Shown here in pieces: positions 17,815-38,730 of a stretch of DNA of 38,730 nucleotides. Where the stretch lies: assembly GCA_003990765.1 (NCBI GenBank), contig RBNJ01000157.1, forward strand, positions 1 to 38,730, written 5' to 3'. How positions within the stretch are numbered: position 1 is the first letter of the stretch; the number at the start of each line of letters is the position of its first letter. The notes under the pieces were generated by a model. The model was not told the origin of the DNA and did not search any database. It was given only the letters and a program-made list of their open reading frames with translations. The translations under genes were made by a program, and so were the position numbers. This DNA is from Jimgerdemannia flammicorona (taxonomy: Eukaryota).

Positions 17815-19432
17815 AAGGGGTTAATTGGATCACACGATGTGCCGTCGCTCCGCACTCCGAAGTCGGGGGTTCGGGGGTCGGGGATAGTGGAGACACCAGT
17901 ATTGTGCAATGTAGTCACTGACGGCTTTTACCCTCTTTGATCAGCCACTCAAAGTATGCCTTACAGCAATGTAGTGGGTCAAAAAGCAGATCATCGAAAA
18001 CACTGACTTTATTTTCTCTCCTCGACTCGGATCCTTTAAAAAATCCATAACACATGAAAGAGACGACGATTCCGGGGGTTTCGCGCTTCTGTACATGGCT
18101 AAGGATGGCGTGTGAGTCGAATTTTATCTGCCGCCGAGTTTGCCTATAAGCATGCCATTCATTTGACTTCGACAGTCCGTTCCAGGCTTCAAAGCGGCTT
18201 CACCCTTTTTCTGAAGACCACCTACGTATCTCTTTCTGCACTCAATGTTCAGTGCAAGCCGTATCCACAGAGCTTTGGAGGTTCGTGTGACTGGCAAGAC
18301 TCTGCCTACTGCCGACAGGTCTCATCTGACGCTTCACATTCACAAAAGAAAGCATGCCAAGTCCACGACTGCCGTTTCAACGAGAGAGAACTATTTTTTA
18401 TTTTGTCAGGCACCAGGTCCAGTTTTTTCTTTGTTCCATCACCATCCGTGCTAGATGTATTCCTGTTCGTAGCACTCGGTTTTGTATCGCCCAGTTCGTT
18501 ACATAAAACGGAACTATGTGAATAATTCTTTTCTCTCTTTCTTTTTCCAGAATCGTCACTCCTCCATCGTTTCTATTTTGTTTCATCGTACTCACAGTTA
18601 GAGACCGGGTCGCCAAACGGCCACCAATGTCCTGATAAAAGTTTTCTGTAACGAGATTTCTTGCCTTTTGTCTCGTGTTCGAGACAAAAGCAAGAGATAT
18701 TCCTCGTGTCTCGGACAAGCCGTCAGCTGCAAGCTACACTGCACCTGTAGCTGCCACGTTACAACTTATCTTCCCAACGGACGACTTCCATCGCATAAAC
18801 ACCATGTGTGACAATGCACGTGGCGATAAACTCAAGGTCTTTTGTTTATGCACACAAAGCGATCATTTGGGCCTCGTGCCGAAGCATGTAATGCAACCGC
18901 GCAATTAAGGGGAATCCAGAATTTGACATCTTTGATAGTCACCCAGCAATCGCTGGAAGTGGTGAACGATGATCGTTTGGATAAATTTGGCAGATTCTTG
19001 TTTCGGCTAAGATGGCTTTTGAGACTCCGTAGAGACGTGAATTCGTAGAAGTGAAACATTTCTTGGAAGGAGGGGTGCGTGTGTGTACCTTACAGGTTCA
19101 TTTCCAGGAGCTGGACATCAGTCGATTATGGAAAGATAATTCCTTTAGCAATTGAAATTCTGTGGGGATTTGGGGAAGGTCAGGAAAAGAGTCAGAGTTC
19201 CGAGAATGAGCGTGTCAAAGCAGCAAAATGGAGCATGAGTCACATCACATACTTGGGGTTAGACAGATGAGACATGGTGATTGGATTGCGTGAAAAGTGA
19301 GCAGGTTTGCTAAGCAGGTATATACGCGCTGACATGTGTCTTTGGAGACTCCACACTTATCAATTTCGAATGCCAGAGTTTGTCAACCGAATTCATCTTT
19401 GCTTCTGACTCTCTATTTTCTTCCCTTCCGTA

Positions 19433-20599
19433 ATGACCCCAAACATCGAGTCCGAGCAAACCGTTACTCAGAGGAAGGTCGGCGAAAAGGTAGTATACGA
19501 GCGCGATTGGCAGCTCCCAGAGTTCACCATCAAAGAGATCAGAGACGCTATCCCCGCCCACTGCTTCAAGAGGGATACCCTGCGCTCTTTCGGCCATCTC
19601 GCCCACGACCTCGTCATCATCGCCATCCTCGCTTATGCCGCAACGTTCATCGATGCCCTCCCAGAAGCCTACCGGTATGTCCTTTGGCCCCTCTACTGGG
19701 TTGCGCAGGGCATAGTTTCCACCGGCATCTGGGTTATCGCCCATGAGTGCGGCCACCAAGCCTTCTCCCCCTCCAAATTTATCAACAACTCCGTTGGATG
19801 GGTCCTCCACTCTGCCCTCTTGGTTCCCTACCACTCGTGGCGCATCTCCCATTCCCGCCACCATAAGGCTACCGGACACTTGACCAAGGACCAAGTCTTC
19901 GTCCCGTCCACCCGCAGCAAATTAGATCTCCCACCTAAGGACCAGGACCCCGAAGACGGTATGCACCACAGCATGTTCGACGAGGCGCCCATCACGACCC
20001 TGTTAAAATTCGCGATCATGTTCTCTGGCGGCTGGCAGGCCTACCTCCTCGTCAACTCTACCGGCCAGGACTACGGCCGCTGGACCTCCCACTTCCACAC
20101 TTCTTCGCCGATTTTTGAACCACATCAATTTTGGGATGTGATCGTCTCCGTTGTTGGCATTATCGGCATGCTCTCAATCCTTGCCTACAGCTCCATCGTC
20201 TTTAGTCCCTTGGCCGTCGCGAAGTATTACATTATTCCTTACATGATGGTCAACTTCTGGTTGATCCTCATCACCTTTCTGCAGCACACCGACCCAGCCC
20301 TGCCGCACTACCGTGAGGCGGTCTGGAACTTCCAGCGCGGCGCAGCTCTGACGATTGATCGGTCGTACGGCTGGTTGCTGAACTACTTTCATCACCACAT
20401 CGCCGACACCCACGTGGCGCATCACTTCTTCTCGCAAATGCCGCATTACCACGCGGAGGAGGCGACGAGCCACATCAAGAAAGTTTTGGGCAAGGCGTAC
20501 GTCAACGACGACACGCCCATCCCAATCGCGCTGTGGAGGAGTTACACGCAGTGCAAGTTCGTGGAGGATGAAGGTGACGTCGTGTTCTTCCAGCACTAG
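19433..20599 (+). CDS. FAD2: Delta-12 (omega-6) fatty acid desaturase, single exon
   Basis: FTIKEIRDAIPAHCF N-terminus, His boxes HECGH, HSRHH and HVAHH, ITFLQHTD, and FVEDEGDVVFF C-terminus. Delta-12 versus delta-15 activity cannot be settled from sequence alone. Confidence 0.92.
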   Translation: MTPNIESEQTVTQRKVGEKVVYERDWQLPEFTIKEIRDAIPAHCFKRDTLRSFGHLAHDLVIIAILAYAATFIDALPEAYRYVLWPLYWVAQGIVSTGIWVIAHECGHQAFSPSKFINNSVGWVLHSALLVPYHSWRISHSRHHKATGHLTKDQVFVPSTRSKLDLPPKDQDPEDGMHHSMFDEAPITTLLKFAIMFSGGWQAYLLVNSTGQDYGRWTSHFHTSSPIFEPHQFWDVIVSVVGIIGMLSILAYSSIVFSPLAVAKYYIIPYMMVNFWLILITFLQHTDPALPHYREAVWNFQRGAALTIDRSYGWLLNYFHHHIADTHVAHHFFSQMPHYHAEEATSHIKKVLGKAYVNDDTPIPIALWRSYTQCKFVEDEGDVVFFQH

Positions 20600-20871
20600 A
20601 CTAAATAGATGGATGGCGGTTGTAGGGAACATGGCCTAAGTTGCTCGGCTGTTTTGGGGTCGAACAATGTTTCTTTTCTTTTACCTAAACAACGATCCGT
20701 TACCTAGCTCTAAGCATATATACACGAGATGTAACGGCAGATAGTTACTTGTGGATAATATTGAAAAATACACTGACGTAATCTGTCTTCGGCTAAAGAC
20801 GAATTTCCTAATTTGCATACCATTTTCTGAATGCCACTTTTCAAGGCGTCGTGATACATATATATATATAT

Positions 20872-21193
20872 TGTCACGTAGTGGTCGCTGAGTCCTTCAA
20901 ATATATCAGATTCTCTTCAAGGTGTATCTCTTAGACTAACTACAAGTTTGTTATAAGCAAGTTCTTATTGGAGTGCCTTCCCAAGGTCTTATAGTCCTCA
21001 AACTTCTTATCTTTAAACTGTCTTGTCATCTCTTAGATTGCTTGCATGGAATTGAGTATAAGTGAACTTGACTGACTTTATTTCAAAGGAAATAAGAGGG
21101 CTATTTATACAAAATATAATTCAATAGTTACTAAGATATAAGGCTAAATATAAATTCCAATAACCAAATAAAATACTGGAACACAGAAAACTT
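20872..21193 (-). mobile_element. 3' part of an LTR of the same family as the 22.8-31.6 kb gypsy, inverted and truncated
   Basis: Reverse complement matches about 24038-24396 (e.g. ACAGTTTAAAGATAAGAAGTTTGAGGACTATAAGACCTT and TTTCCTTTGAAATAAAGTCAGT). Ends ...CTACGTGACA next to a (TA)n run. Confidence 0.9.
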
Positions 21194-22508
21194 GTTTCAG
21201 ACATTCTTTACCACTCTACAGTATTTTGCCATCATTTTCAAGCAATGAAAAAGCTTTCCATCGACATTTGTAACCACATCATCCACTTACTGCAATCTGG
21301 TTTATCTACACACAAGATTGCCAAAGAAATCAATTTGAGTGCGATGACAGTAAACCACGTAAAAATGGTGTATTGCAACAATATTCCTTCATCAAAAGGT
21401 GGTTGTCCAGCTATGTTTTCAGCCTGGGATGAAGTATGGATCACCCACCAAGTTACAATTGGCAAAGCAGATAATGCCACCAGAGTTGTAAAAACCCTTC
21501 AAGAAAGTAGCAAAAAGGTGAGCCTTAGTATGGTAAAATGAATGCTCCAAAAGGCCAGCCTCAAAGTATACATGAAGCAAAAGAAACCACTTTTGCTACC
21601 TCACCACATAAAGGCACACTATGAATTTGCCATGAAATACAAGCATTGGATAGTTGCTGACTGGAAAATCATTGTGTTTTCTGATGAAATGAAGATTAAC
21701 TGTTTGGGCTCTAATAGACGTGAATGGATATAGCATAAATCGGGTGGTGGTGGGGAGCTTCAACCGAACCAGGTGACTGGAATGCTAAAATTCAGTAGCA
21801 GATTGTTAATGCTTTGGGAATGTATGATATATAAGGGCATTGGATATATATGCCAAATTGAAGGCCAAATGAATGCTGAATTATATACTAGTATTCTTGG
21901 TAATGAATTGCTTCGAATAATCAAGTATTACAAACTTAATCAAAAAAAGATCACCTTCTAACAGGATAATGATTCCAAACACACGTCCAAAATAGTGCGT
22001 GAATAGTTCAAAAACAACTCTATCCACATATTAGACTGGCCAGTGCAATCGCCAGACTTCAACCCCATCGAACATTTATAGTGTAAACTTAAAAAATGGT
22101 TGAATACATATGACGAACCACCTGAAGGAATACTGGAATTATAGGAGTGTGTATAGCATATATGGAATAATATTCCTAAAGATATTTATATTAAATTAAT
22201 TAAAAGTATGCCCAGGTACATTGCAGCAGTATATAAAGCCAAAGGTAGATATGTTAAATACTAAATAAAAATAAATAAGAGGTTTGGATGGCCAAGAGGG
22301 TCAAAACTATAACAATGGTAATATAACTTAAAATGGTTATATTAATGTCTATATTTATCCAAATAAAATAAAAAATATACCATTTAAAAGCTGAGATACT
22401 ATATTATTAATGGTAAAAATTTGGATTTTATTATATTTATATTGAAGCTATAATATAATTATATATAAAAAATAACTAAACATTGTTACAGTTTTGGCTG
22501 TCACTGTA
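21194..22508 (+). mobile_element. Tc1/mariner DNA transposon (DD34E); right TIR and TA present, left end lost
   Basis: Right end ...GTTACAGTTTTGGCTGTCACTG|TA at 22506-22508 (CAGT-type TIR). Contains the transposase at 21245-22264. Confidence 0.9.
21245..22264 (+). pseudogene. Tc1-like transposase pseudogene, 340 codons in one frame with several nonsense codons
   Basis: HTH N-terminus, KKPLL, IVFSDE, QDNDSKHTS, WPVQSPDFNPIEHL and SMPR..AV.KAKG. There are 34 residues between the second D and E. No frameshift; the stops are explicable by C>T or G>A changes. Confidence 0.93.
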
Positions 22509-22802
22509 TCTCTTTCTCCACTATCATACTGATCACAAGGTTTTGATAGACAATCTTCTGAGTTTCTTTTCTATAACTTATTTTCTCTCTATTTTAGATT
22601 GGTTTGTTATATCTATTGCAGAACAGTAAAAAGGAGGCAATAGTAATAAGTTGCCCCTTTATCAGTATCAAATTGATACTTTCTCTACTTTTTTATAGTT
22701 TCTGATACCTCTGGCTATATTTGAAGTATACTTATTTTGATATAACACTTTTTTTCTTTTACTATCATTAATAAGATATTATTATAGTATATTATAAACT
22801 AT
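22509..22802. repeat. Repeat X, left piece (host element split by the gypsy insertion)
   Basis: Aligns with about 37589-37880 and continues at 31644 after the gypsy element. Confidence 0.8.
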
Positions 22803-24396
22803 TATAATAGAGATCTTGGAATGGTGACATTATTACAGAAAACAGTCTTTCCTTATAAGCTACCAGATTAGAGCATAAGAAGATCATATGGTATGACTTA
22901 CTCAGACTACAAGATGAGCAATAATGACTAACTATGAGTCATAATGATCACAAGATAGATATCTCAAAGAATATAAAAGAAGGACCAGAAAACTACAGTA
23001 GTAGTAACTCTAATAAAAACTCACAAAAATCTAAAATAGTTCAAAAGACTCACTATAAATAAAATGTCTATTGCTCACCAAACTGTAAGGTCTAGGAACT
23101 ATCAAGGCTTCTCAGTCCAAGAAAGGATATTCCAAGATATCAGGAGAACTATAAGAACCCATACTAGAAGAATTCCTAGCCTCAACTTAGGCACTAGTGA
23201 TCCTTATCACTTTACTCTCTACTATTATAAAATAGAGACAAGGATCACTATTACTATTGAATATCTCTAGATGTAGCAGAAATATGAAATAAGAAATCTC
23301 CTCTACTAGAAATTCCCTCAGGTCAGTCTCTAAAAGATAAAATACTATCTCTATAGATATATATAAATTGAGAGTAGCTAAAAAGATTCATCAGATCTTT
23401 AGGTATATATATATCTTAGTCAATTCTCAACTTGAAGTATATCAGAGTCTCAGACTTTAAGGAATTATCAGCCTACTATATAGATATACTAGAAGCTATA
23501 GTGGCCACAGAAGCTCAATCTACTATTACTCTCAAAAGTGATGAGATAGAAGAGTTCTGGAATCCCATTCTCAAGAATAATCCAGATCAATTTCTGCAAG
23601 AATTAATCTCAGTATTTCAAGGCCCCAGTATTCATGTCAGACCCCCTCAAGATTCTATCTTTGTCTCCTACTTTATAGAGGAAAATATCATAGATTGAAG
23701 AGCCCCTGATCTCTTTTCTGCTGCTATTGAATATGATGATATCACTAGTGATAATATCATCTCACTAATTGACACATATGAAATAAATGAAACAGAAATA
23801 TTTGCTGACCATATTTTCTTCAAAGACATCCTGTCCCTAACCTCTAGCCTTAATGATAGTAATAAAGATAAAGTCTCCAGAATTCTGAACATTCTACTTT
23901 AATTTATTTATATAACTATTTGTTTGAACACTTGAATATTCTAGCATCCTGATCTTATATAACTGTCAGAAATTATTTCAGCATTCTGATCTTATATAAT
24001 CAATTATATAGATACTTAAATTTGTACTTACAACCTGAAGTTTTCTGTATTCAAATATCTTATTTGATTATTAGATTTTATATTTAGCTTTATATCTTAG
24101 CCATTATTGAATTACATTCTATATAAATACTCCTCTCATTTCCTTTGAAATAAAGTCAGTATTAAAATACTTAAGTATTTAAGTATCTAATTACTTAAGA
24201 GTACAAAAGTTCTAGTTCTCTACTCAATTCTATATAAGTAAATCCAAGAGACAATAGAACAGTTTAAAGATAAGAAGTTTGAGGACTATAAGACCTTAGA
24301 AAAGTACTCTAATAGAACTTGCTTATAAGAAATTTATAGTTGATCTAAGAGATATACTTTAATATATTTAGAGAACTTAGTACTTACTATGTGACA
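22803..24396 (+). repeat. 5' LTR (1594 bp)
   Basis: TATAAT(from TGTAAC)...GTGACA termini, colinear with 30074-31643. TATA box at about 24120-24129 and AATAAA at 24149-24154. Confidence 0.93.
23064..23902 (+). pseudogene. LTR-embedded ORF of unknown function, 5' LTR copy
   Basis: ATG at 23064 (MSIAHQTVRSRNYQGF...) to TAA at 23900-23902. Two small frameshifts relative to the 3' LTR copy. ORF-track pieces 23064-23270 and 23432-23698 are parts of it. Confidence 0.65.
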
Positions 24397-24449
24397 ACTT
24401 AGTATCCATTAGCTGATAATATTATTAAGATCTCTCACTTTCAAGCTGA

Positions 24450-27400
24450 ATAATGAATAACTACCTCAATAACTACTCTGACTATAAGAGTCACCTTCTG
24501 TAAGAATTTAAGATAAGATAGAAATATATCCTCCCATATTCTATAGATTTACTACTGAAGAGTTAATCTTGACCTTTATTAAAGACTTTAAATAATTTGC
24601 CACTATATAAGCTCTTAGTGTTGAAGCACAATTAGCTCTTCTACCTATCAGTCTCAGAGAACTTGCCAGAGATAAGTTCAATATAATCACCATTGCCAAC
24701 AATAGTATAGCCAAACTCACCAATATAAAGAACTTCCTCAGAACTATATACTATATTAAAGAGATCAAGTAAGCTCTTAAAGATCAACTCAATACTATCT
24801 GCCAAGGACTTAATGAAGACCCCAACTCATTTTACACTCAAATCTGCTACCAGATTGTCTTTGCTAACTATGATGACATCCTCAAGGAATAGATAGCTGA
24901 TTCAATCTTTCTAAAAAAAAGTCTACCATAAAATTACCCTAGCAATCTGATCTATTCCAGCTACTCTGACCCTTGACCAGAAAGTGGTCTTTGTACAAAG
25001 ATATTGGACTGCCAGACACTTTGTTAAATATTCAATAGAAAGGATAACTGGTATCAAGATAGAGCTATTAAAGCTAATCAATATTATACCCACTATAGCT
25101 CTTAACAGACAACTATCTCCACTTACTCCCAAGATGACCAAAGCCAATCTAGTAGAGAAACTCCCCCAGTAGTTTACCAAGATGACTGTACATCTTGGTA
25201 ATATTATTAGAGAAGTATGAAGTGCTAATAGGAGACTAGTACAGAAGTTTATAGCTACTATAGAGAAATATATCATTACATACTTCAAATATAGAGAAGA
25301 AGGCCACTATATAAAAAATTACATGACCAAAATAAGGCACAGAGTCCAATCAAGTAATACTACTAGAACTAGAGAATAAACTAATATAGTAGTCATTAAG
25401 GAGATTGGTAATACTGATAATGAAGAATACTATGATGAGTCTAAATTCTATCCTGTTACTGAAGATATCAGAACCTAGTCTAAGCCCTATAATAAGAAGG
25501 ACAATAGCAAGCCAGTTGGAAGACCAAAAAAGACCTCAACCATTACTATTCAAAGTAAGATCCAATCTGAGGAGATTGACCAAGATATAGAGTTAGATGA
25601 AGCTGCCTACCAAATTATTGAAAGCACTACTCCAGTCTCAGGAAAAAGTGAAAATAAGAAAGAATAGAAGCTGCATAAGACTAAGATCCATCAGTATGAT
25701 ATCTATAAAAACCTTAAGGAATAGAAGATCAATACTACTTTTGGACAACTAGCAGAAGTTCCTGCCTTCAGACAGCAGTTGAGAGCAGAACTTATAACCA
25801 CTGTCAAGAACTAACTGTATAAGATCATAGAAGCTCATAATGTATAAGAAGATGAATAAGAAGACTTAGGTAAAGAATTTGAAGATCAGCACAAGACCTC
25901 AGCCTATATGCAATATCAGATTTAAGATTATATCTTTAATGCTATCATTAATACTAGTGCTGAAGGATACCTTATAAGCAAAAAAGCAATTGACCACCTA
26001 GGCTGAGATATTGAAGAATTTACCAAAATAGTCTATATTACAGTAAATGGTATACAAGCTACCCCCCTAGATAAGATCTGAGAAGTTTCTATAAGATCAG
26101 AAGAGCTACCATTCTAGTAGATGTAATCATTATGAGTACTACTAACTATAATATACTCATTAGTAATCAATGGCTTTACAAGACCAAGACTATTGTTGAC
26201 CTTAATACCCAAAAGATACAGACCAACTATAGAGGAAGAAAGATATGAGTCTCTATCAATATTTACAAAAAGGTACTATCAGATATAGAAGAAGAAGATA
26301 AAGAGAATACAGAAGTCTTTATATACTCAGTATATAAGAATAAGAGCAAGACAACCAAGCTCACAGATGAGCAGTAGTATAACAAGATTATTGATAACTA
26401 TACTTCTCAAAGAAAATGCCCCCATAGTACTAGAATGTACTGCTCCAAATACCTAAATGACTACTGGTTCTGTACTAGTGAAGTTAGAAAAATCCATTAA
26501 TAAAGATATGAGTAAGAAGTAGCTGAAGTAAAAAAGAAAGTTAAAGAAGATGACCAGTCTCTAGAGCTTCAAGCTGATAGTAATAATGAGGAGGAATAAG
26601 AACCAGACATCACTCTCAAGGTTAAGAAGTTTTACCCCAAAGCTAAGATTCCAAAATACAAGACTGAAAAAGCTATAAAAATAGGCCTTACCAGCATCCA
26701 AGATGCTATCCTTAAACCACAAACCACCACTCTACTTGGTACTGAAATTGGAGTCAAGTTACCAGAAAACTATTCCAGAATTATCAAAATCAGAAGCAGT
26801 CTGGTCAAGAGCAAAATCTCAGTTAAAGGAAGAGTCATTGACCCTGATTACACTGGTGAGATCTTCCTTATAATCAGGAATCACAACTCCACCACTCCAT
26901 TCAAAGTCAAGAAATATGACAAGATTGGCCAGATACTAATCTATGAAGTTAAGAAGTTTAAGATCATTGAAGTCATTGAACTTATCAAGACTAAGAGAGA
27001 AGAACAAAGCTTTGAATTTACTGGAAGAGGAGCCTATGCTACTATCAAAATTACTGAACTCAAGTATAAGAAAGACAAGAACCAGAACAAGCACATATAT
27101 ATCATTGGAGAAAACTTTCTCCTAGAAGAACAACTTTTTAAGATCCTGTACCAGAATGAAGAAGTACTCACTACAGACTTCAGAGATATCCACAATCAAG
27201 AACCTAAGTACTACTATGAAGTTGATACTAGTGATATCAAGCCCATTTATCAGAAAGTCAGATCTATACCACCTGCTTACAGAGAATAGCTGTGAGCAGA
27301 ACTCAAGAAAATGGAAGAAGCTGGTATCATCAAGCAAGCTATTAGTCTCTGGGCTTCACCCATTATTCTTACTCCAAAGAAAGAAAGTAAGCCTGGAGAG

Positions 27401-29710
27401 TTTACTCTACAACTCTGTATTGATTATAGGAAGCTCAATGCAATTATCAAAAAGAATAGACAGCTCTTACCAAATATTCAAGAAATCCTTAATACTTTTA
27501 GAAGTGAAGCCAAATACTATACCACCTTAGATTTGTTCTCAGGCTTCTATCAGATCAGTCTCACTTAAGATATCAGTGAGAAATCAGCCTTTATTACATA
27601 TGATGCCACCTATGTCTATCTATAAATACCATTTAGAATATATAATACCCCAGTAAGTTTTCAGCAAATAATAAATAAAGTCTTCAAATGAAATTAAAAA
27701 ATGACTCTTGTCTATGTTGATAATATGATCATCTTCAGCAATACTATATGGGAATATATTAACTATATACAGCTAGCTCTCAAGAAGCTCAAAGAGTATG
27801 GCCTCTATATCAAGCTCAAAAAATATAAGTTTTCAGCTCAAGAAATTGTCTACTTAGGACATATCATCAACCAGACTGGAATTTATATAGACTCTATGAA
27901 GATTGAGGCTATTGTAGCCTATCTAAGATTTAGAACAACTACAGAAGTCTATGTCTTTCTTAGACTGGCCTCCTATTATAGAAGATTCATCAAAGAATAC
28001 TTCAATATTACAGCATCTATCTATAAGCTACTGAAGAAGAAGATCAAGTTTGAATGGACTAAGGAATGTCAAGAAATCTTTAATGAACTCAAGACTAAGT
28101 TGATCTAAATACCTATTCTCAGAAGACTAGATTGGAATCTAGAGTTCATCCTACAGACAGATGCAAGTACTATAGAACTTAGAGTAGTGTTAGCTTAGAA
28201 GAAAGATAGATATGAATATGTCATCTCCTATATATATAAGCTAAGATACCTATAGAGCAAAATAGAACTATAAGTTATATAAGCTTGAATGCTTAGCAGT
28301 AGTCTGGGCAGTAGACAAGTTTCACTACTACTTAGCTGGAAAATACTTTACTATTCAAATAGAGTATTCTGCTCTTACCTGGCTATTTCATACTCTGAAC
28401 CCCAAAGAAATATATATCAGATAGATTTACAGACTGCAAGAGTATCAACACCATCTAAAAAGAACTAATACCAATACTGATATACTCTTAAGGATACTCT
28501 GAAATACCCCCATTAAGACTATTCAACATGAATAAGGAGCTATGTATACTATAGATTAATTAGCTATCTTAAGTAGTGGAAGATATCTAATTACCTTAAA
28601 CCCTAAACTATTACTATTATTAACTAAACTTAGAAACAATTTGAACTAGATAACACCATACTCAGAAAAGGAGAAAAGCTCATTATACCTGAATATAAGA
28701 AGTATTAAGTAATGAAGGAAGTATATGAACAAAGATATTTAAAAGGAATCAATATATACAATAAGGCAAAAAGAATCATGTAATGGTCTAAGATAGAAGA
28801 AAACCTATACCAATTTATCAAAAAGTGTAACAAGTACTAAAAACAGAAATAAGATCAGTAAGACCAGATACCCAGATTATCAAGAATCAAACCTATTTTC
28901 TTCTACCACATTATAATAGATATTATTGGATCACTACTAGTAACTCTATTAGAAAACTGCTATATTATAGTTATTGTAGATCTCTTTACTAAATAAATAG
29001 AAGTAGGAGTATTACAAAAAGCTAATACTCTCTCTATTACTAACTTCCTGTACCAAGAAATCATCTGCTACTATAAGACACCAAATTACTACAGACTGTA
29101 GTACAGAATTTGTCAACAGATTCCATAAGATAATATATCAGAAATATAAGATTTAGTATATCAAAACTACTATATATCACTCTCAAGAAAATAGACAGAT
29201 AGAAAGAACAAATAAGACCCTTAAGAACATCCTGGCCAAGATCTCAGACACATATGAGAATTGAGATAATTATCTCTCAACTACTCTCTTCATCCAATAA
29301 GATATATAGTTACAGAGTATACACTTTACCCTATCTTCAGAGAAGAAAATTCTGATAGAATCTTAGCCACAAATCAAGACCTACTTAGTAATAAATTGAC
29401 TCAGAAATCTGAAAACTATACCAAATCAGAAAAAAGGTAGAATATTATATCACTAAGTCACAAGTGTTAATAAAAAAGAATGCAGAAAAGAATCATAAAA
29501 CTTTAGAACCCATTCAAATTGGAGAAAAGGTCCTACTTTATCAAAATATAATAGAAGTCTTATAGTTATAAAAACTGAAGCCCAAATAGGAAAGACTCTT
29601 TTATATACAAGATATCAAAAGAACTACCTTCTGGTTTAGAAAACTCTCAAACCATACTACTTACTATAGTATATAGGAATAGACTCAAGAAATACCATGA
29701 ATCTATATAA
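24450..29710 (+). pseudogene. gag-pol pseudogene
   Basis: Gag QGLNEDPNSFY; zinc knuckle YFKYREEGHYIKNY (from CxxCx4Hx4C) at about 25280; protease AIINTSA (from DTGA) at 25941; RT WASPIILTPKK, LCIDYRKLN, LDLFSGFYQI, YVDN (from YVDD); RNase H ILQTDAS; integrase IVDLFTK, YHSQENRQIERTN, IGEKVLLY and RNRLKKY. Ends approximate. Confidence 0.92.
26600..27025 (+). pseudogene. Trimeric dUTPase domain within pol, between protease and RT
   Basis: LKVKKFYPKAKIPKY, IRSSL (motif II), RVIDPDYTGEI (III), YDKIGQIL (IV) and TKREEQSFEFTG (motif V, from RGxxGFGSTG). Stop-free and in frame with RT (27311-26600 = 711). Missed by the ORF track. Confidence 0.92.
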
Positions 29711-30073
29711 GAGAAGTAAAATATAATGACCATCTATAAAGCTAGTCTATAAATCATAACAGCATATTCTATAACTAGTAGATAATCTGTCAGAACTATT
29801 CTCTAAGAGATATGATACTAGCAACTACTCATTTATAAGACTTTCAAAGCCAGAGGAGTTCAAACCATCAACTAATTAGTCAAGATCAGAATCAGGCCCT
29901 TGTTCTATATAAAGAGAGCTACTCTTCACCATTATGCCAAAATATATAAGGAAGATACTAGTTCATAAATACCACTTTTTGACCCTCTGCCAGAGGTTAT
30001 GGGATCAGAAAATTTTTCAGACTGAATCAATAAATAAGAACATTCAAGAGAAGATTCTTATTTAGAAGAAAGA

Positions 30074-31643
30074 TGTAACAGTAATCTCAGAATGGTGACA
30101 TTATCACAGAAGACAGCCTTTCTTATAAGTCACTAGATCAGAGTATAAGAAGATTATATAGCATAACTTACTCAGACTACAAGATGAGTAATAATAACCA
30201 ATTATGAGTTATGATAACTATAAGATAGATATCTTAAGAAATATAAAAGAAGGACCAAAAAACCATAGTAGTAGTAACTCCAATAAAGACTTACAAAAAC
30301 CTAAAATAGTTCAAAAGACTCACTATAAACAAAATATCTATTACTTACTAAACTGCAAGATTCAGGAATTACCAAGGCTTCTTAGTCTAAGAAAGGATAT
30401 TCCAAGATATCAAGAGAGCTATAAGAACTTGTACTAGAAGGATCTCTAGCCTCAACTTGGGCACTGGTAACTCTTACTACTTTATCCTCTACTGCTATGA
30501 AATGGAGATAAAAATTACTACTACTACTGAATGCCTCTGGATATAGCAGAAATACAAAATAGGAAATCTCCTCTACTAGAAATTTCCTCAGACCAGTCTC
30601 TAAGAGATATAAGATACCACCTCTATAGATATATATAAATTGAGAGTAGCCAAAAAGATCTATCAGATCTTCAGGTATATACCTTAGTCAATTCCCAACT
30701 TAGAGTATACCAGAGTCTCAGACTTTAAGAAATTGTCAGCCTGCTGTATAGATACACTAGAAGCTATGGTGGTCACAAAAAGTATCACTCTCAAAAGTGA
30801 TGAGATAGAAGAGTTCTGGAATCTTATTCTTGAGGACAATTCAGATCAATTTCTATAAGGATTAATCTCAGTATTCCAAGGCCCCAGTATTCAGATCAGA
30901 CCCTCTCAAGATCTCACCTTTGTCTTCTATTTTGTAGAGGAAAATATCATAGATTGGAGAGCTCTTGATCTCCTTTCTACTACTATTAAATATGATGATG
31001 TTATTAGTGATAATGTCATTTCACTAATTAATATATATGAAATGAATGAAACAGAAATATTTGCTGACCTTATTTTCTTTGAAGACATCCTATCTCCAAT
31101 CTTTAGTCTTGATGATAGCAATGAAAATGAAGTCTCCAGAATTCTGAACATTTTACTCTAATTTGTTTATATAGCTATTTATTTGAACACTTGAATATTC
31201 TAGTATTCTGATCTTATATAACTATTAGAAATTATTCCAGCATTCTGATCTTATGCAACTAATTATATAGATACTTAAATTTATACTTACAATCTGAAGT
31301 TTCTTGTATTCAAATATCTTATTTGATTATTGAATTTTATATTTTAGCAATTATTGAATTATATTCTATATAAATATCCCTCTCATTTCCTTTGAAATAA
31401 AGTTAGTATTAAAATACTCAAACATTTAAGTATCTAACTACTCAAGAGTAGCCCTCTACTCAATTTCATACAAGTAAATTTAAGAGATAATAGAATAGTT
31501 TAAAGATAAGAAGTTTGAGAACTATAAGATCTTAGAAAGATACTCTAATAGAACTTACTTATAAGAAACTTATAGTTAATCTAAAAGATATATCTTGAAG
31601 AGAATCTGACATACTTGGAGAACTTAGTACTCACTATATGATA
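30074..31643 (+). repeat. 3' LTR (1570 bp)
   Basis: Starts TGTAACA directly after the PPT, ends ATGATA (from GTGACA), followed by the TSD CTAT. Confidence 0.93.
30334..31161 (+). pseudogene. LTR-embedded ORF of unknown function, 3' LTR copy (276 codons, single frame)
   Basis: ATA (from ATG) at 30334 to TAA at 31159-31161 with no frameshift. Internal stops are TAA/TAG only, and several are CAA in the other LTR. Confidence 0.7.
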
Positions 31644-32150
31644 CTATATAGGAAGTCAGTCAATCTTTAGTATCAAGTACTAGTATAGATTATCTGCAGG
31701 TTGTCAGTACCTATAATAGAGCTCTCTAAACTTTGGCAAGCTTCTCAGTAAGCATAGTTCTGATATAGATAATTGTTTTTCAGATAGTATTAGAATAAAA
31801 GAGAAGGTAGCTATCACAGATAGGAAGAAGAGTAATAATAGTGAGCTAGTCAGATATTAGGCTGAGGGTAGTCATTAGAGTTAGAATAGGTATTATCTCA
31901 GTAAGGCCCTTTGATTGGCTGGCAGATAGTGGGGTAGTATTGTAGCTAATATTTTTGCTATATTTAATTAGAACTAGAAGCTGACATAGTAATATAATTG
32001 AGGTCCACAGGTTTGAGAAGTGAGACCTTCCTTATTTAGCAGTACCTGACTAGAACTAAGAGCTGATATAATAATATAATTAAGATCTATAAACTCAAAA
32101 AGTAGAATTGGAGTCTTTTTAGATCTTAGTCTATATATCAGTCTTTTTGA
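31644..32150. repeat. Repeat X, right piece
   Basis: Aligns with about 37877-38362 and includes the same ~80-bp internal tandem duplication. Confidence 0.8.
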
Positions 32151-32449
32151 GGAGATCTTATACATATATATAGTATACAGTACTTATACTCAATCTTTTG
32201 ATTATAACTTTATATTATATATAATAAAAATAAAATAAAAATTATAAATTGATATAAAATTTCATTAAGTTTAATCAAATAGAGAGTTTTTTTTTATCAT
32301 CATTTTTTATATTTGCATTAAGATTAGTCATAATTTCAGCCTTAAATCTAAAGCTGAAAAGTTAAAATTTAGTATTAATTATAAGTCAGTCTTAAGCAAA
32401 ATTTAACTTTAAAAATAAGTCAGTCTAAAGTAAAATTCAATACTATCAC

Positions 32450-33356
32450 TCTGATACTCTGGCAAAATAGAACTAATTACCAAGAGATCAAACTTATCTC
32501 TATTATCCAAATAAAGAGACTATCTTATAAAAAGAGAAATATCTACTATATCTATATAGTAGAAGAGATAGTAAAAGCTTCAACTAGCTTAGTCCCATCA
32601 GAAGCTCAGAAACTCTTTAAGAAATTCTAAGATATTTTCCAGAAATCTACAGATATTTTACTCAAGCATCAAATTTAACATAAGATTGATCTTATTCTAA
32701 GAGCAAAACTCTCATATGGTCTAGTCTAAGCTCAAAGTCCTTTAGATCTTTAAAATTAAGGTATTCTTTTTGCTAGATTTATGAAATAGATATTACCAGA
32801 TTCTTATTGATGAGAAGAATATAGAGAAAACAGTCTTCAGAATATAGTTTAGATACTACCAATTCTAAGTTATATCTTTTGATCTAATCAATACTCCTGT
32901 AATCTTATATCTCTTATTCTGTAATATGATTTAGTCAAATTTAACTTTAAATTTTTAAATTTTTTTTTTTGACTTGATATTTATTATAAAATTATAAATA
33001 TATATATATGAAATAAGTTAGAAAAGTTGAAAAAAATAATTGAATTTTTTTATTTATAATTTAATTTTTATTTTTATTTTTATAATATTTTTATATTAGT
33101 TTTTTTTTTTTTTTTTTTATAGCCAAATTTGGCTGTATTGTATAAGGGATATATCTTAGTATATATTGATGATATTATAATTTATAGTGAAATAGTTAAG
33201 TTGTATTATACTTATCTATAAAATATACTAATTTTACTATAAGAACACTAGTTCTATATCAAGATGAGCAAGTGTAAATTCTACTAAGACCAGATTAAAT
33301 ATCTAAGATATATCATCTCAGCTGATGGTATCAATATAGATCTCTGAAAGATATTA
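32450..33356 (+). mobile_element. Relic reverse transcriptase of a second Ty3/gypsy family, internally deleted and interrupted
   Basis: F*DIF..HKIDLI.RAK..YG, LDL*NRYYQILIDEKNIEKTVFR, VISFDLINTP (from MSFGLTNAP), LVYIDDIIIYS, KMSKCKF and YLRYIISADGI. Confidence 0.85.
32906..33153. mobile_element. MITE-like insertion with degenerate terminal inverted repeats inside the RT relic
   Basis: TATATCTCTTAT...AGTCAAATTTAACT on the left versus AGCCAAATTTGGCT...ATAAGGGATATA on the right. AT-rich non-coding core that splits the RT motifs. Confidence 0.55.
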
Positions 33357-33359
33357 GTT

Positions 33360-36300
33360 CTATAGGATATTTTTATCTCTACTATTCTTAAGCTTCTTTA
33401 ATAATAACTTAGCAATATATAATCCAATTTTAATGATCTTAATATCATTAGAAAGGCCTTATTAAGGGCTTTCAAATGATTAAATTTAGATGATTATTTA
33501 TCAAATTATTGATATAAACATTTAATTGTCTAATTTGGAAATTAAAATAATGATTGATTCAAATCAATCTGAATCCAATTTAGATTAAATTGACTCATTA
33601 AGAGTACTATATATCATTATTAATATATTATAGTATATTTATTTATTTATATTTCTTTATCTTTTATATAGAGACAAAGAATTGCATATATAATAAAGAT
33701 ATGTTGAATATATGTCAGGTAGAATACAAATTATCTTAATATTGAATTTCTGTAAAACCCATTAAGCTAGTAGTAAGTTTCACTCAATAATTTTAATTTT
33801 GATAGCTTATTCAATTTGAACTAATATAATCTCTATTACCTAAAGAAATATAACTATTTCATTTATATTATAATAATTATATAAAGTATATATCCAGTTT
33901 ATACTTATTTGAACTAGAAATACTATTGTGGTAATTTATCAGATATACTTTTTACCAAAGTCAATAAGTATAATTATATCTATATATATAATCCTTTGCT
34001 TTACTCTATATTCAAGGGCCAATTTAAGAGTAATTTATATAATATAAGTTATACAAAGTAATATTTTTATAGTACTTATTCTTTTTAAAGAGATGGATAT
34101 CAGTATTAGTATTATTATATAACTCCAAAATGAGATATTTGATAGTTGTATATTTGGAGCAGATAGAGTATTGAGTTTGATAGTTTAACTATTATATAGT
34201 ATAATTAGCTCAAATGATATATATTATACTTCTAAAGATCTTTATACAAAACCTTACAAACTATATACTGATAATATTAAAGAATCTTCTTTTTAAATAA
34301 ATATATTTGTAGATTATAACAATAAGTAATTTTTATTTAAAGTTGATAGAAATCAGCTAAATATACTAATAAGTAGCTAATTTATATAAGCTAATAAATA
34401 GCTTATTTCTACTAATTTTTACCATTAATTATATTTATTTGGATAAGATGATGAAGATTGAAATTTAAAATTATCATTTAGAAGTATGTATTTGAACTAT
34501 AATATTATTATTTATATTTCTCATTAAGCTTTCAAAACTTAGAGAGAACTTAATTATTTATATATATACTATTATTTATATTTTTTCAGAAATTAGAGAA
34601 AACTTAATTATTTAAAACTATATAAGCTATCAATTATTTATATGAAGTTTATTTTAATAAATATAATATATAAATATACTTATGATCTTCTTCATTTAGA
34701 TATATCTCTTTACTATTTTCAAACTTCTCTTATTTCTTCATTATAGTAGTCTAGATAATATTTAGTTACTGATATATTTCTGGTAAGCTAACTATACTAA
34801 TTATCCTGAGAATATTATTTATTGGGATTTCTATAACAATTCCTCAAATTTGATTTTAGTGATGACTATATAAATTTAATATATATAATTAGATTCTATA
34901 ATATATAAGTAAAAAATACTCTCATTATGTAAACTTACTAAATACTAATATTCTCTAATCTAGTATCTTCAATTGGTACAATTGAATCAAACTAAATAAT
35001 ATCTTTGATCTGTAATATAGTCTGTAATTTGAATGTATGAAGACTAGTCAAATAATCTCTTCAAATATATATTAGTACAGATTTTATTGACTATATAGTT
35101 CTTAAACTTTGTTTATTGCATAATATTGAAGTTGAAAGTTTTGTTGACTAGATCTCCTAGAAGACTAAACTTGGTACTATGTTGTTTATAGATAAGAAAT
35201 ATCTTATCAGAATTAAATATTAATTATTTATACTGGTGGTCTTTATTAAGGTTATAAATATTCCAAAGAACAGAAGTGAGCTCAGAAATAAGACCAGTCT
35301 TAATAGCATTAAGAACTTGTCTCCTTATATTGCTTAGCCAATAGATTATCTATAAATAAAAGATAATTAGAAAAAATCAAATATATATAAAAAAGAGAAA
35401 TATATATAAATATAAATATACTTTTAAATATTTCACAGTTTAATCCTTAGTAATTAATATATTGATATTAAAATCCATATTGTTAGATATTTTTTTCTAT
35501 TGGGCTATATATTGATAATAACTATATATCTAAGTAACTTAAGCTTAGTAGTATATTTTTGATCAAAATATATATCTTTGGTTTCATCTTATATTTTTCA
35601 AGAAGTTTCAAATAGCAGAGTATTGTAGGAGAATTTTGAGCTTGAATAATAATAGATGATATTAGATAGAGAGAACTTCAGTAGAGAAGATATTGGTAGA
35701 AGAGAGATAAAATGATGATTGATAGATAATTTGACTTATACATTATATAGACAAGTATGAGAGAGGTAGAAAAGAAGAAAAGAGATAATGAGAGAAAGTA
35801 AGAAGAGTGGGAGAGATATGTTAAAAGACTGTACTTTTATATTATTAATAAGAATAAAAATTGCTTATACATATAATAACTAGCATATATTGACTAGCCC
35901 ATATATTAGCCAGCCTATTAATAAGAGTATATATTGGCCAGCTTATCAACAAGAGCATAATATATTAATTAGTCCATCAATAAGAGTATATATTAGCTAG
36001 TATATATATTAACTAGCCTATTAATAAGAGCATATATTAGCTGATCTATTAATAAGAGTATAATACATTGGCTAGTCTATTAATGAGAGTATATATTGAC
36101 CAGTATATATTAATAAGCTTAGCATATATAATCAGTCACCACTAATATATATTGATAAATATATTGGTTAATATATACTAATTATTATACAAGTAATTCT
36201 CATTAATAATATATAATATATACTTATTAACTAGTATATATTAGATAGTATTATATATTGATTTAGTATATATTAATAAGCTTTCAGTATATATAACATA

Positions 36301-37300
36301 CATATATACTAAGTCTCTTAAGCTTAAATTATATTATTAATCAATTATATTGAACTTTTTGATAGATCTCAAGCTTCTTAAACTATTATAAATTATTATC
36401 TAAAGTAGTAATAATTAGAAATTAGCATATTTCAATCTTTTAAGGAGTATTTATATATATTCTTGCTAAATTCTATAGATTTTTCTATATAATGAACTTA
36501 TAAAGATATTATGATATAAAAATATAACTGGGTTTTGTATATATATATATATTATCAGTAAATAGCATAATTACTATATAACTATTATTGATTTTTACTA
36601 AAATTTTTACTATTTATAAAAAATATTATTATAATATAATTCTTCTATAAATCTATATTAAACTATTAATATAACTATTATCTTAGGAGTATGAAAATGT
36701 TCTCAATATATTTATTTTCATTTATATGGATTTTTGATTATAAAAATAATAATAGAAGTCAGTATATCCCAGATATATATCTCAGTGAAAAATAATTCTA
36801 TATGACTCTTACTGAGATATCCTTAACCTACTTAGATATAAATTTTCTTAATATCTTAAGATCTATAAAACCTGCTCATTTTTATTGAGATTTTATATTT
36901 TTTCTTTAATATGAGGGGTGGGGTTCTGTATTTTTTCTATATAGAAGTGACTATTTTTCCTTATCAGCAAATTTGCTTACTTGATCTGATTGACTAGCTG
37001 CTCAACTTAATTGGCTAACTATAGTCAGCTTATTGATCTCTAATTTATTATATTCAGTCTATACTCAGGACTATATATTTCACTATAAAATAATCTTAAA
37101 TTAAAATAAGAATTTGATTCAATTTAAAGTTCAATTTAAATTTAGTATAATAAAAAATATTAAATTTAGATATATTATTTTATTAAGTTATTATATTCTA
37201 AATTAAGATAAATTTAAATTAAATTATATTTTTAATTTAATTTAAATTAACTCTAATTTAATTTAATTTAAATTGATTTAATTTATTTGAAAGTACTAGC
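33360..37300. mobile_element. Heavily decayed DNA-transposon debris; family not identified
   Basis: CpG-free and very AT-rich. Minus-strand coding-like and intron-like remnants at about 33650-35740, a tandem array, and two similar ends (...AGTACTA at about 33608 and 37298) preceded by AATTT/AAATT short repeats. Confidence 0.45.
35880..36300. repeat. Degenerate tandem array, unit about 28 bp (approx. AGYATATATTRRCYAGYCYATYAAYAAG)
   Basis: Repeated AAGAGYATATATT..C.AG motifs with C/T and G/A variants. Confidence 0.75.
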
Positions 37301-37586
37301 TAAAAATATTATTATAATATATAGATTTATTATCTAATTAATAATCATTATTATAAACCTATATAGTTAAATGAGAACTATTGAGTTATTCTTCTATATA
37401 TTAGAGTTCTCTATACAGAGAATAATCAGATAAAGACAATACTATATTTATCTCAAACTATATATACTATATATGTGATTATACTTTTATAGATATTATA
37501 ACTATCTCTATTATAGCCTAGATATATCTAAGATATTCTGCTGTCCAGTATATTAGAGCTTGACAGAGATATCAATAGTACTAATA

Positions 37587-38362
37587 TATCTCTTTCTCTG
37601 CTACTTTACTGGTTATAAGATTTGGTAGGTAACCTTTCAAGTCTCCTTTCTCCTATTATTACCTCCTTTATCTTAGATTAGTTTGTTATACTTATATAAG
37701 CATAGTGGAAGAAGGACAATAGTGAGGAGTTGTCTCTTTATCAGTATCAAATCAGTGTCTTCTTTACTTTTTCATAATTTCTAATACCTCTAGCTATATC
37801 TAGAGTATACTTATTTTAGTACAGCATCTTTGTTCTTTTGCTATTATCAATAAGATATCATCTCAGTATATCATGAGCTGCATAGGATATCAGCTAACCT
37901 TGGACATCAAGTGCTAGTATAGGTTATCTGCAGGTTATTCAGTATCTGTGATGGGGTTTCTAATAAGTATAGCACTAGTATAGGTGACTGTTTTTTTATA
38001 TATTATCAGAATGAGAGAGGAGATGGCTGTCATAGATAAGAGGAAAGATAATTATAATAAATCAGTAGGGTACTAGGCTGGGGACAGTTGTCAGAGTTGA
38101 GGCAAATATTATCTTAGTAGGGCTTTCTGATTGGCTGATAGAGAGTGGAGTGGTATAGGAGCTGGTATTCTGGCTATATTCAACTGAAACTGAGAGCTGA
38201 TATAGTAATATGATTGAGGTCTATAGGCTTAGAGAGTGAGATCTTTCTTATTTAGCAGTATCTGACTGGAATCAGGAGCTGATATAGCAATATAATCAAG
38301 GCCTGTAGGCTCAGAGAGTGAGAGTAGGGTCTTTTCTAGTCCTAGCCCATATATAAGTCCTT
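37587..38362. repeat. Repeat X, second uninterrupted copy (possibly part of an LTR; may extend further on both sides)
   Basis: Contiguous homolog of 22507-22802 plus 31648-32150. Differences are mostly transitions. Confidence 0.8.
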
Positions 38363-38730
38363 TACTTACTCACTTTGAATCTACTTTGCTTTCTGTTGAT
38401 TGATTGGGGGGTTTTTCTTTATCTCAGACTTTCTTTTGGAGTTTGGAGGGCTATTCTTTATTCAGTCCTAGCACTGCTAGATCTAATGCATAGATGTGCT
38501 CTTGTGTGTAGTCATGATGATCTAGCCCTGGTGAGTAGACAAGTCTGGTCTATGTCATGGGGGTCAGTATAGCTGGTGTTTGACAGGCATAGCTAGAGTG
38601 ATGGGACTGCCGAACAATTTAGTAATCTAGGTTAATAGGGAGATAATGTTTGGTGGGTGGTGGGGGAGGGTTTTGGCCTATATAGTCTAGGTTCCCTTCC
38701 AATAAAAATCTGCAGGACTATGAGTCTATA

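Follow-up and report, generated by a model that had tools for sequence, protein, structure and literature searches.

The 38,730-nt stretch of contig RBNJ01000157.1 of Jimgerdemannia flammicorona analyzed here (the window) contains an 8.8-kb Ty3/Gypsy LTR retrotransposon at positions 22803–31643, all features of which are located on the forward strand. Its 1.6-kb LTRs, which have TG..CA ends read by hand, extend from 22803 to 24396 (5' LTR, starting with TATAATAG, the counterpart of TGTAACAG in the 3' LTR, and ending with TGACA) and from 30074 to 31643 (3' LTR); blastn pairs positions 22813–24359 with 30084–31596 at 84.6% identity. The ends of the element are fixed by an empty paralogous site: comparison by eye with the uninterrupted site near 37878–37881 reveals the 5' copy of a 4-bp target-site duplication (CTAT, 22799–22802), and the flank starting at 31648, just past the 3' copy (CTAT, 31644–31647), matches position 37882 onward. 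A polypurine tract, read from the sequence as AGAAGAAAGA, occupies 30064–30073, directly 5' of the 3' LTR. The assignment to Ty3/Gypsy rests on the LTR pair, the target-site duplication, the polypurine tract, the RVT_1-type reverse transcriptase (RT), and the order protease (PR), RT, RNase H, integrase (IN), with the caveat that the IN matches are weak.

The gag remnant (24533–25400) was recovered by tblastn matches to residues 7–141 and from residue 138 onward of the intact relative P0003, whose zf-CCHC domain is at residues 262–277; in the window translation, the three Cys residues of the zinc-knuckle remnant (25281–25322) read Tyr. The aspartic protease remnant (about 25884–26359) matches the PR region of P0003 in two frames, with 44% and 33% identity, a frameshift near 26105, and the active-site triad DTG changed to NTS (25950–25958). 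It is followed by a Cys/His motif (C-P-H-x..Y-C..C, 26417–26473), the dUTPase region (26600–27025), the RT (RVT_1, 27407–27868, 76.1 bits in Pfam), RNase H (28055–28496, RT_RNaseH_2, 42.8 bits), and a remnant of the IN core (28907–29246), for the last of which tblastn gave weak hits, in P0008 (E = 3e-8) and in P0010 (E = 1.8e-4). RNase H is also frameshifted, near 28235, with residues 1396–1487 of P0003 matched by tblastn in another frame. The Cys/His motif had been picked out in an earlier, sequence-only reading of this DNA, and alignment with seven relatives (P0003, P0004, P0006, P0146, P0123, P0178, and P0126) shows that it is conserved in the lineage at this place between PR and dUTPase.

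Pfam searches of six translations covering gag, PR, IN, and LTR of the window returned no families at E ≤ 0.01, so that gag, PR, and IN are known here solely from tblastn with relatives. Likewise, no chromodomain (PF00385) was found at E ≤ 0.01 in 29097–30083, a heavily mutated region, and the ORFs of the intact relatives stop before IN. An open frame is present inside the LTR and has no Pfam match. The same reading had described the element as a "complex," retrovirus-like one; this label is unsupported, as no env-sized ORF was found between IN and the 3' LTR, the longest stop-free run in six frames of 29250–30073 being 56 codons.

The translation of 26600–27025 matches the dUTPase profile (PF00692) with 66.3 bits and E = 3e-18, far above the curated cutoff of 22 bits. 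The match, at nucleotides 26639–27019, covers residues 14–140 of the translation and 2–127 of the 129 profile positions; the intact relatives score higher (85.9–115.1 bits). The best matches among solved structures are all dUTPases, and 67 dUTPase sequences from PDB were matched at E ≤ 0.001. The best cellular-type chain has E = 1.6e-14 versus about 1e-5 for 1duc and 1dut, which we take to be retroviral dUTPases, so the retroviral enzymes appear far less similar to the window domain. A reading as dCTP deaminase was rejected, as the DCD profile scores lower (42.8 bits) and matches only partially. An ESM Atlas search with the dUTPase domain of P0003 returned generic dUTPase clusters alone, mostly phage-labelled, and was uninformative on origin.

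The fusion proposed earlier, with the dUTPase in frame between PR and RT, stands. In the read-through translation (P0002), Pfam places dUTPase at residues 180–306, RVT_1 at 436–589, and RT_RNaseH_2 at 652–711, all in one frame, and a single uninterrupted tblastn high-scoring pair with intact P0003 (548 amino acids, 26609–28240) runs through dUTPase, RT, and RNase H, with the PR remnant lying upstream. The domain was also correctly described as stop-free and sharing the RT frame: the ORF at 26600–27289, which spans the dUTPase and the linker to the RT, has 229 codons and is the longest in the element. A host dut gene split by a transposon was discarded as a candidate, given that dUTPase and RT are contiguous in that tblastn match. 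Judged by its sequence, then, the region 26600–27025 is a trimeric dUTPase-family domain in the pol polyprotein of a Ty3/Gypsy element.

The same order of PR, dUTPase, RT, and RNase H is found in P0003, P0004, P0006, and P0146. In the RT-RNase H tree, these four intact members and the window element form one clade (SH-aLRT 98.4), separate from P0051 and from 33 Gypsy rows that lack a dUTPase, and all five carry the dUTPase. This grouping comes from a model-based tree (LG+G4) of 39 of the 122 rows, from a set that did not include P0194 (matched stretch shorter than 250 residues); in the 122-row FastTree, the window RT lies on a long branch outside the family, and only the model-based tree joined them. 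Among the 150 best dUTPase representatives, BLASTP found family-specific flanks in six (P0123, P0126, P0130, P0146, P0178, and P0232). Three short fragments group with the family as well. For P0131 and P0158, both the tree and the flanks say so; for P0129, the grouping comes from visual inspection and the 273-row FastTree only.

The dUTPase trees are less decisive. The 273-row FastTree has little resolution, and P0006 falls outside the family group in the free trees. The quick IQ-TREE analysis used 63 of the 273 rows (all retroelement, nearest, and named rows, plus every seventh free row) and left out P0129, a 105-aa fragment. When 11 family rows were constrained together, a group that P0178, P0131, and P0158 joined after the tree had been seen, the resulting tree gained 29 lnL units over the free one (p-AU 0.82), and a single family clade of dUTPases is thus compatible with the data. 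These comparisons argue that the dUTPase characterizes the element's lineage as a whole.

In retroviruses, the dUTPase is encoded between RNase H and IN (lentiviruses) or N-terminal to PR (betaretroviruses). According to Hizi and Herzig (2015), these dUTPases, from non-primate lentiviruses and betaretroviruses, belong to the same family and lie within gag-pro-pol. The order PR-dUTPase-RT itself is not new to the literature, which describes it in Tmt1, PosPlaTy3-5, and elements of rotifers and planarians. Tmt1 of the truffle Tuber melanosporum had been named as a precedent, rightly so: papers citing Riccioni et al. (2008) describe it, like the window element, as a fungal Ty3/Gypsy LTR retrotransposon with a dUTPase between PR and RT. 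By those descriptions, Tmt1 resides in an ascomycete and belongs to a chromodomain-bearing chromovirus clade, whereas the window element has a host in Mucoromycota, a lineage-conserved Cys/His motif before the dUTPase, and, in this degraded copy, no detected chromodomain. The same placement in fungal Gypsy elements of basidiomycetes is reported by Novikova et al. (2010) for PosPlaTy3-5 of Postia placenta, along with dUTPase-bearing elements of Phanerochaete chrysosporium. The bdelloid rotifer elements Juno, Vesta, and TelKA, as presented by Rodriguez et al. (2017), also have the order PR-dUTPase-RT, in animal hosts, but Juno has an extra Zn knuckle after the dUTPase and the lineage described here has its Cys/His motif before it. 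Our literature search on dUTPase found no report of dUTPase-bearing elements in Mucoromycota, the nearest being a mention that PF00692 and retroviral families are jointly enriched in Entomophthora muscae. With the present element, the fungal hosts of dUTPase-bearing Gypsy elements include a member of Mucoromycota in addition to Dikarya, and the domain proves to be a stable character of its lineage that goes with a conserved Cys/His motif. The domain itself establishes no new principle, given that its arrangement and its proposed role have both been published.

The joint explanation that we favor, and consider very probably correct, is that the domain is the dUTPase of a Ty3/Gypsy pol, inherited within the lineage and dUTP-hydrolysing in its intact members, and that the window copy is a hypermutated fossil. 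The element is inserted where a Jimgerdemannia-like genome (Endogonales, Mucoromycota) is hypermutated and rich in repeats. A single long ORF of the lineage encodes gag, PR, the Cys/His motif, dUTPase, RT, and RNase H; the dUTPase was thus gained before the lineage diversified and then inherited together with the RT. Intact members most likely use the domain to hydrolyse dUTP close to the particle in which reverse transcription proceeds, and this would prevent uracil from entering the cDNA under low host dUTPase levels, as in the non-primate lentiviruses, in which, according to Hizi and Herzig (2015), the dUTPase is needed in non-dividing cells and its loss raises the number of G-to-A changes. 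It is from this analogy that we infer uracil avoidance as the role of the dUTPase in intact members, which now provide defined, intact natural sequences in which the idea could be tested. C-to-T/G-to-A hypermutation after insertion would then have wrecked the frames and motifs I, IV, and V of the window copy.

As to where the dUTPase came from, it is possible, if doubtful, that the element stands for an old Gypsy lineage of its own among early-diverging fungi, whose IN has an ORF to itself. On this view, the dUTPase would have entered the lineage together with a zinc-binding Cys/His module, by an acquisition independent of those in the Dikarya chromoviruses and Copia elements, and its donor would lie outside the eukaryote-type clade. 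If true, uracil control by a retroelement would here have been tried out independently. A single ancient acquisition for all retroelement dUTPases, shared with Tmt1-like chromoviruses, Copia, and perhaps retroviruses and leaving no separate capture here, appears improbable. The AU test rejects neither one clade of all 17 retroelement rows (p-AU 0.10) nor the family joined with the eukaryote-type clade of P0194, P0138, P0271, and P0238 (p-AU 0.35), but the tree constrained to one retroelement clade is 46.6 lnL units worse, the dUTPase position in pol differs among the groups, and P0051 (dUT-RT) groups with chromodomain elements in another RT clade (support 100). Novikova et al. (2010) also report other dUTPase positions and infer independent captures.

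The window copy itself shows extensive damage. Each of the five dUTPase motifs has a consensus string. With the five-motif list given in section 7 of Hizi and Herzig (2015), all five motifs are kept in P0003, P0130, and P0146. The sequence-only reading had regarded motif I as degenerate and motifs II to V as clear. This holds for motif I, which has lost its Gly and Asp, and for motifs II and III, which are recognizable in the alignment, with the catalytic Asp of motif III kept (VIDPDY in the window, VIDADY in P0003), but not for the remaining two: motif IV reads YDKIGQ versus GDRIAQ, with three of six residues changed, and motif V reads REEQSFEFTG versus R-x3-GFGSTG, with the loss of three Gly residues and a Ser. 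At 14 of the 38 conserved columns (those with at least 80% consensus among seven intact relatives), the window copy differs, trimer and active-site glycines included. The departures had been described as mostly G>A, and codon analysis agrees, C>T/G>A alone explaining 11 of the 14 (versus 0.15 for random missense changes).

The pol frame has 32 stops in 998 codons. A working enzyme in this copy is contradicted by these stops and by the substitutions in motifs I, IV, and V; as hypermutation has destroyed both the reading frames and these motifs, the copy is taken to be a dead pseudogene without an active enzyme, while the lineage itself qualifies as having a trimeric dUTPase. Comparison of the two LTRs gives 213 transitions to 5 transversions; the observed/expected CpG ratio is 0.00. 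The classical RIP indices are 1.14 for TpA/ApT and 1.08 for (CpA+TpG)/(ApC+GpT). For the latter, the threshold for RIP is a value below 1.03, so that this second index does not indicate RIP. As a side observation, RIP-like hypermutation in a genome outside Dikarya is more surprising than the dUTPase itself.

The stop-free state of 26600–27289 amid this decay is most likely due to chance, with some room left for selection by the probability of a 229-codon run under uniform stop placement (P = 0.0068). Such selection could have kept the stretch for a non-catalytic role, as a trimerisation scaffold or a domesticated protein, while the rest decayed. Moonlighting dUTPases do occur in phages and herpesviruses, and the GC content of the run (0.366) is slightly above that of RT and RNase H (0.30–0.33). 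Counting the remaining stop-prone codons, however, the difference in stops is not significant (1 stop to 9 remaining inside the run, 31 to 41 outside; Fisher p = 0.08), and the altered columns include the very glycines of trimer and active site, making retention by selection very unlikely.

It is hardly credible that a dut gene of host or endobacterial origin was captured by this copy alone, in a family that as such lacks a dUTPase: PF00692 was found in only 4 among the 120 Gypsy relatives listed, and captures happen repeatedly, because retroelement dUTPases sit at several positions (PR-dUT-RT, dUT-PR, IN-chromo-dUT, and Copia IN-dUT-RT), but every row of the window's RT clade has the domain at the same place, the six further representatives share its flanks, and the family dUTPases are compatible with one clade. 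Neither outcome that the sequence-only reading had named as refuting its case, absence of a dUTPase HMM hit or absence of the domain from other family copies, was observed: the hit is present, and other family members carry the domain. The host, a Mucoromycota fungus and not one of Dikarya, is identified as J. flammicorona or a close relative by a delta-12 desaturase ORF, which is 99% identical to a J. flammicorona protein, the next match being Endogone sp. at 81%.

The dUTPase domain at positions 26600 to 27025 (+ strand) is a genuine one and lies within a dead copy of a Ty3/Gypsy LTR retrotransposon (22803 to 31643, + strand). Translated, this stretch matches the Pfam family dUTPase (PF00692) at 66.3 bits (E = 3e-18; profile positions 2 to 127 of 129), the curated cutoff being 22 bits; this was the HMM check proposed in the sequence-only reading. 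A dCTP-deaminase-like profile scored only 42.8 bits on the same translation, below the dUTPase score. At E ≤ 0.001, the domain matches 67 distinct chains of solved structures, and each of the 60 rows listed is either unnamed or called a dUTPase; among those listed, 3lqw is the top match (1.6e-14), and 1duc and 1dut, which we take to be retroviral enzymes, reach only ~1e-5. The placement of the domain in the reverse transcriptase (RT) frame also held: when stops are replaced by X, a single frame contains the Pfam domains dUTPase (residues 180 to 306), RVT_1 (436 to 589), and RT_RNaseH_2 (652 to 711), and the intact relative P0003 aligns to the window in one tblastn HSP (548 residues, 39% identity, 26609 to 28240) with no frame change.

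The element has LTRs of ~1.6 kb at 22803 to 24396 and 30074 to 31643 (both + strand), which are 84.6% identical by blastn. The LTR starts are TGTAACAG, or TATAATAG for the 5' LTR, and the ends are TGACA/TGATA; a polypurine tract, AGAAGAAAGA, lies immediately 5' of the 3' LTR, and the target duplication CTAT is found at both element ends. These ends are fixed because the flanks (about 22507 to 22800 and 31648 to 32147) both match a single unbroken paralogous stretch, 37587 to 38363, which acts as an empty site. Comparison with the relatives by tblastn places, all on the + strand, a gag remnant at 24533 to ~25400 (including a knuckle remnant with three Cys changed to Tyr), a protease (PR) remnant at ~25884 to 26359 (DTG reads NTS; frameshift near 26105), the dUTPase-RT-RNase H segment at 26609 to 28496 (frameshift near 28235), and an integrase (IN) remnant, with weak matches only, at 28907 to 29246. 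Run by itself on six translations of this copy, Pfam matched 0 families, missing gag, PR, and IN alike. Both LTRs carry a common frame of ~157 codons with an identical end stop (~23420 to 23900 and ~30685 to 31161) and one internal stop each. Because these single stops fall at different places, the ancestral LTR probably contained an uninterrupted frame encoding an acidic protein; the translation matched no Pfam family. The earlier label of a complex, retrovirus-like element is unsupported, as there is no env-sized ORF in it.

The pol frame of the window copy contains 32 stops among its 998 codons. At the 38 dUTPase columns conserved among seven intact relatives (consensus of at least 80%), this copy agrees in 24 and differs in 14. 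C>T/G>A changes alone account for 11 of the 14 departures, versus a fraction of 0.15 for random missense changes, which bears out the G>A bias noticed earlier; a glycine is replaced in eight. The sequence-only reading was right that motif I is degenerate (its Gly and Asp are gone) and that motifs II and III are retained, catalytic Asp included, but motifs IV (YDKIGQ) and V (REEQSFEFTG), which it had called clear, are altered as well. Judged from its sequence, this copy is unable to specify a working enzyme. The dUTPase stretch forms the start of the longest stop-free run of the region (26600 to 27289, 229 codons), which is nominally unusual under uniform stop placement (P = 0.0068); counts of stop-prone codons (1 stop and 9 remaining in the run, 31 stops and 41 remaining outside) give a Fisher p of 0.08, and we put the run down to chance while granting selection a small probability.

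The dUTPase is a stable trait of the element's lineage, that is, the RT-defined clade of the window element and the intact proteins P0003, P0004, P0006, and P0146, plus dUTPase relatives joined by flanks or tree. The intact members of this clade carry the domain, and a one-off capture would have left them without it. Searching a word index with the segment from dUTPase to RNase H retrieved 304 proteins at E ≤ 1e-5, and PF00692 is present in 4 of the 120 listed; among these, the top three full-length matches, P0003, P0004, and P0006 (31 to 39% identity, 98 to 99% coverage), all have it, each in a single ORF of 1437 to 1499 residues with the order gag, PR, dUTPase, RT, RNase H. At E ≤ 0.001, the window dUTPase domain retrieved 7702 proteins in an exhaustive search; the closest of those listed are P0123 (50% identity), P0126, and P0129. 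Family-specific flanks were detected by BLASTP in 6 of the 150 matches listed, upstream in P0123, P0126, and P0178 and downstream in P0130, P0146, and P0232. The short fragments P0131 and P0158 join the family by tree and flanks, and P0129, also short, only in a 273-row FastTree and by eye. Between PR and dUTPase, the Cys/His motif C-P-H/C-G-x3-Y/F-C-x-E-H-x2-D-C-x2-C is found in P0003, P0004, P0006, P0146, P0123, and P0178 (starting at residues 693, 520, 637, 343, 61, and 58, respectively) and in the window (26417 to 26473, + strand), where two Cys positions read Tyr. This conserved motif, whose region matched no Pfam family at the thresholds used, is possibly zinc-binding. In all four intact relatives, the long ORF stops 10 to 30 residues past the RNase H domain, corresponding to ~28496 to 28560 in the window, and tblastn finds the window integrase remnant in frames other than that of dUTPase-RT; the integrase of this lineage may be a separate ORF.

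In a 122-row FastTree of RT-RNase H, the four intact members group together (support 97), and the window RT, with its long branch and odd composition, falls elsewhere without support. A quick IQ-TREE search on 39 of these rows (LG+G4) unites the window and the four members (SH-aLRT 98.4) and leaves out 33 dUTPase-less rows and P0051, a dUTPase-RT protein that the 122-row tree places apart with chromodomain-bearing elements (support 100). The dUTPase alignment has 142 usable columns only; a quick tree of 63 of its 273 rows puts seven of the eight pre-labelled family rows inside a 13-row group (SH-aLRT 91), the P0006 domain lying outside on a long branch, and places P0194, P0138, P0271, and P0238 among eukaryote-type proteins with tandem domains in a different clade (support 97). 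Relative to the free tree, lnL was 29 better with 11 family rows held as one clade (p-AU 0.82; 3 of the 11 had been joined on flank evidence after tree inspection), 11 worse with the family and the eukaryote-type clade held together (p-AU 0.35), and 46.6 worse with all 17 retroelement rows held as one clade (p-AU 0.10). A single dUTPase acquisition within the lineage fits both genes, and separate acquisitions are favoured for the other retroelements. The nearest free-standing proteins to the P0003 domain among the matches listed show 41 to 49% identity. The 120 listed are mostly unnamed, and the named organisms are bacterial or archaeal, with no eukaryote names; given the preponderance of prokaryotes in the database, this does not count as evidence for a prokaryotic origin. 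Arrangements in other retroelements include Copia-type IN-dUTPase-RT (P0186, P0234, and P0238), PR-dUTPase-RT (P0194), dUTPase before protease (P0138), and dUTPase following the SH3 domain and chromodomain of an integrase (P0271). Three tandem dUTPase domains per chain occur in 7 of the 150 best matches (P0124, P0125, P0127, P0128, P0139, P0149, and P0160), comparable with the trimer-mimicking dUTPase monomer of C. elegans (Hizi and Herzig 2015).

In trimeric dUTPases, five motifs build three shared active sites, and the motif-3 Asp places the attacking water; non-primate lentiviruses are described as requiring the viral enzyme when the host cell is not dividing and has little dUTPase of its own, loss of the viral enzyme leading to more uracil and G-to-A changes in viral DNA (Hizi and Herzig 2015). 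By analogy, intact members of the lineage would reduce dUTP at the site of reverse transcription.

The PR-dUTPase-RT layout itself is already known from other elements. Novikova et al. (2010) report dUTPases at three positions, the PR-RT interval included, in Gypsy elements of Postia placenta, suggest independent acquisitions, and refer to previous accounts of dUTPases in Phanerochaete chrysosporium and Tuber melanosporum (Tmt1); the layout is also described in planarian, fungal, and rotifer elements (Arkhipova and Yushenova 2019) and in three rotifer lineages (Rodriguez et al. 2017). Tmt1, a chromovirus clade of truffles according to the citing literature, had been named as a precedent in the sequence-only reading, and the citing papers agree; the likeness, with Tmt1 compared by description only, is a dUTPase between PR and RT of a fungal Gypsy element. 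A literature search on dUTPase found no report of dUTPase-bearing Gypsy elements in Mucoromycota, the nearest parallel being the reported enrichment of PF00692 alongside retroviral families in Entomophthora muscae. What is new is the phylum of the host, the Cys/His motif coupled to the domain, and the ORFs ending just past RNase H, as seen in all four intact members.

Where its GC content is normal, the window contains fungal genes, including a delta-12 desaturase ORF (19409 to 20599) with 99% identity to a Jimgerdemannia flammicorona protein at NCBI (next, Endogone sp., 81%), and by sequence the host belongs to Endogonales, Mucoromycota, as J. flammicorona or a close relative. One review puts repeats at >77% of the J. 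flammicorona genome and describes Ty3/Gypsy elements as predominant in zygomycete genomes. The most surprising feature of the window lies outside the dUTPase domain: it is the RIP-like, strongly directed C-to-T mutation of the repeats, here in a genome of Mucoromycota. Of the 1557 aligned sites of the LTR pair, 218 are different, comprising 213 transitions and 5 transversions; C/T differences for which the following base is known fall at CpA (106), CpC (37), and CpT (34); the CpG observed/expected ratio is 0.00 in the element, 0.01 in 31648 to 38730, and 1.06 in neighbouring genes. RIP-like hypermutation was also noted between the element flanks (22507 to 22798 and 31648 to 32147) and their paralogous stretch. 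According to the review literature, RIP is not described in Mucoromycota, and a 2026 review gives RID as confined to Ascomycota; literature searches for RIP or deamination in Jimgerdemannia or Endogone listed no paper that deals with either genus. Just upstream of the element lies a decayed Tc1/mariner-type transposase (21002 to 22300, + strand; DDE_3, 41.2 bits; HTH_Tnp_Tc3_2, 31.5 bits). An inverted 194-bp blastn match (81%) to the LTR 3' end (31457 to 31650) at 20865 to 21058 probably represents part of a solo LTR from the element's family, and another Gypsy RT remnant, in a more advanced state of decay, is found at 32764 to 33383 (+ strand; tblastn E = 2e-7 and 1e-4) in very AT-rich sequence (GC ~0.19 to 0.24).
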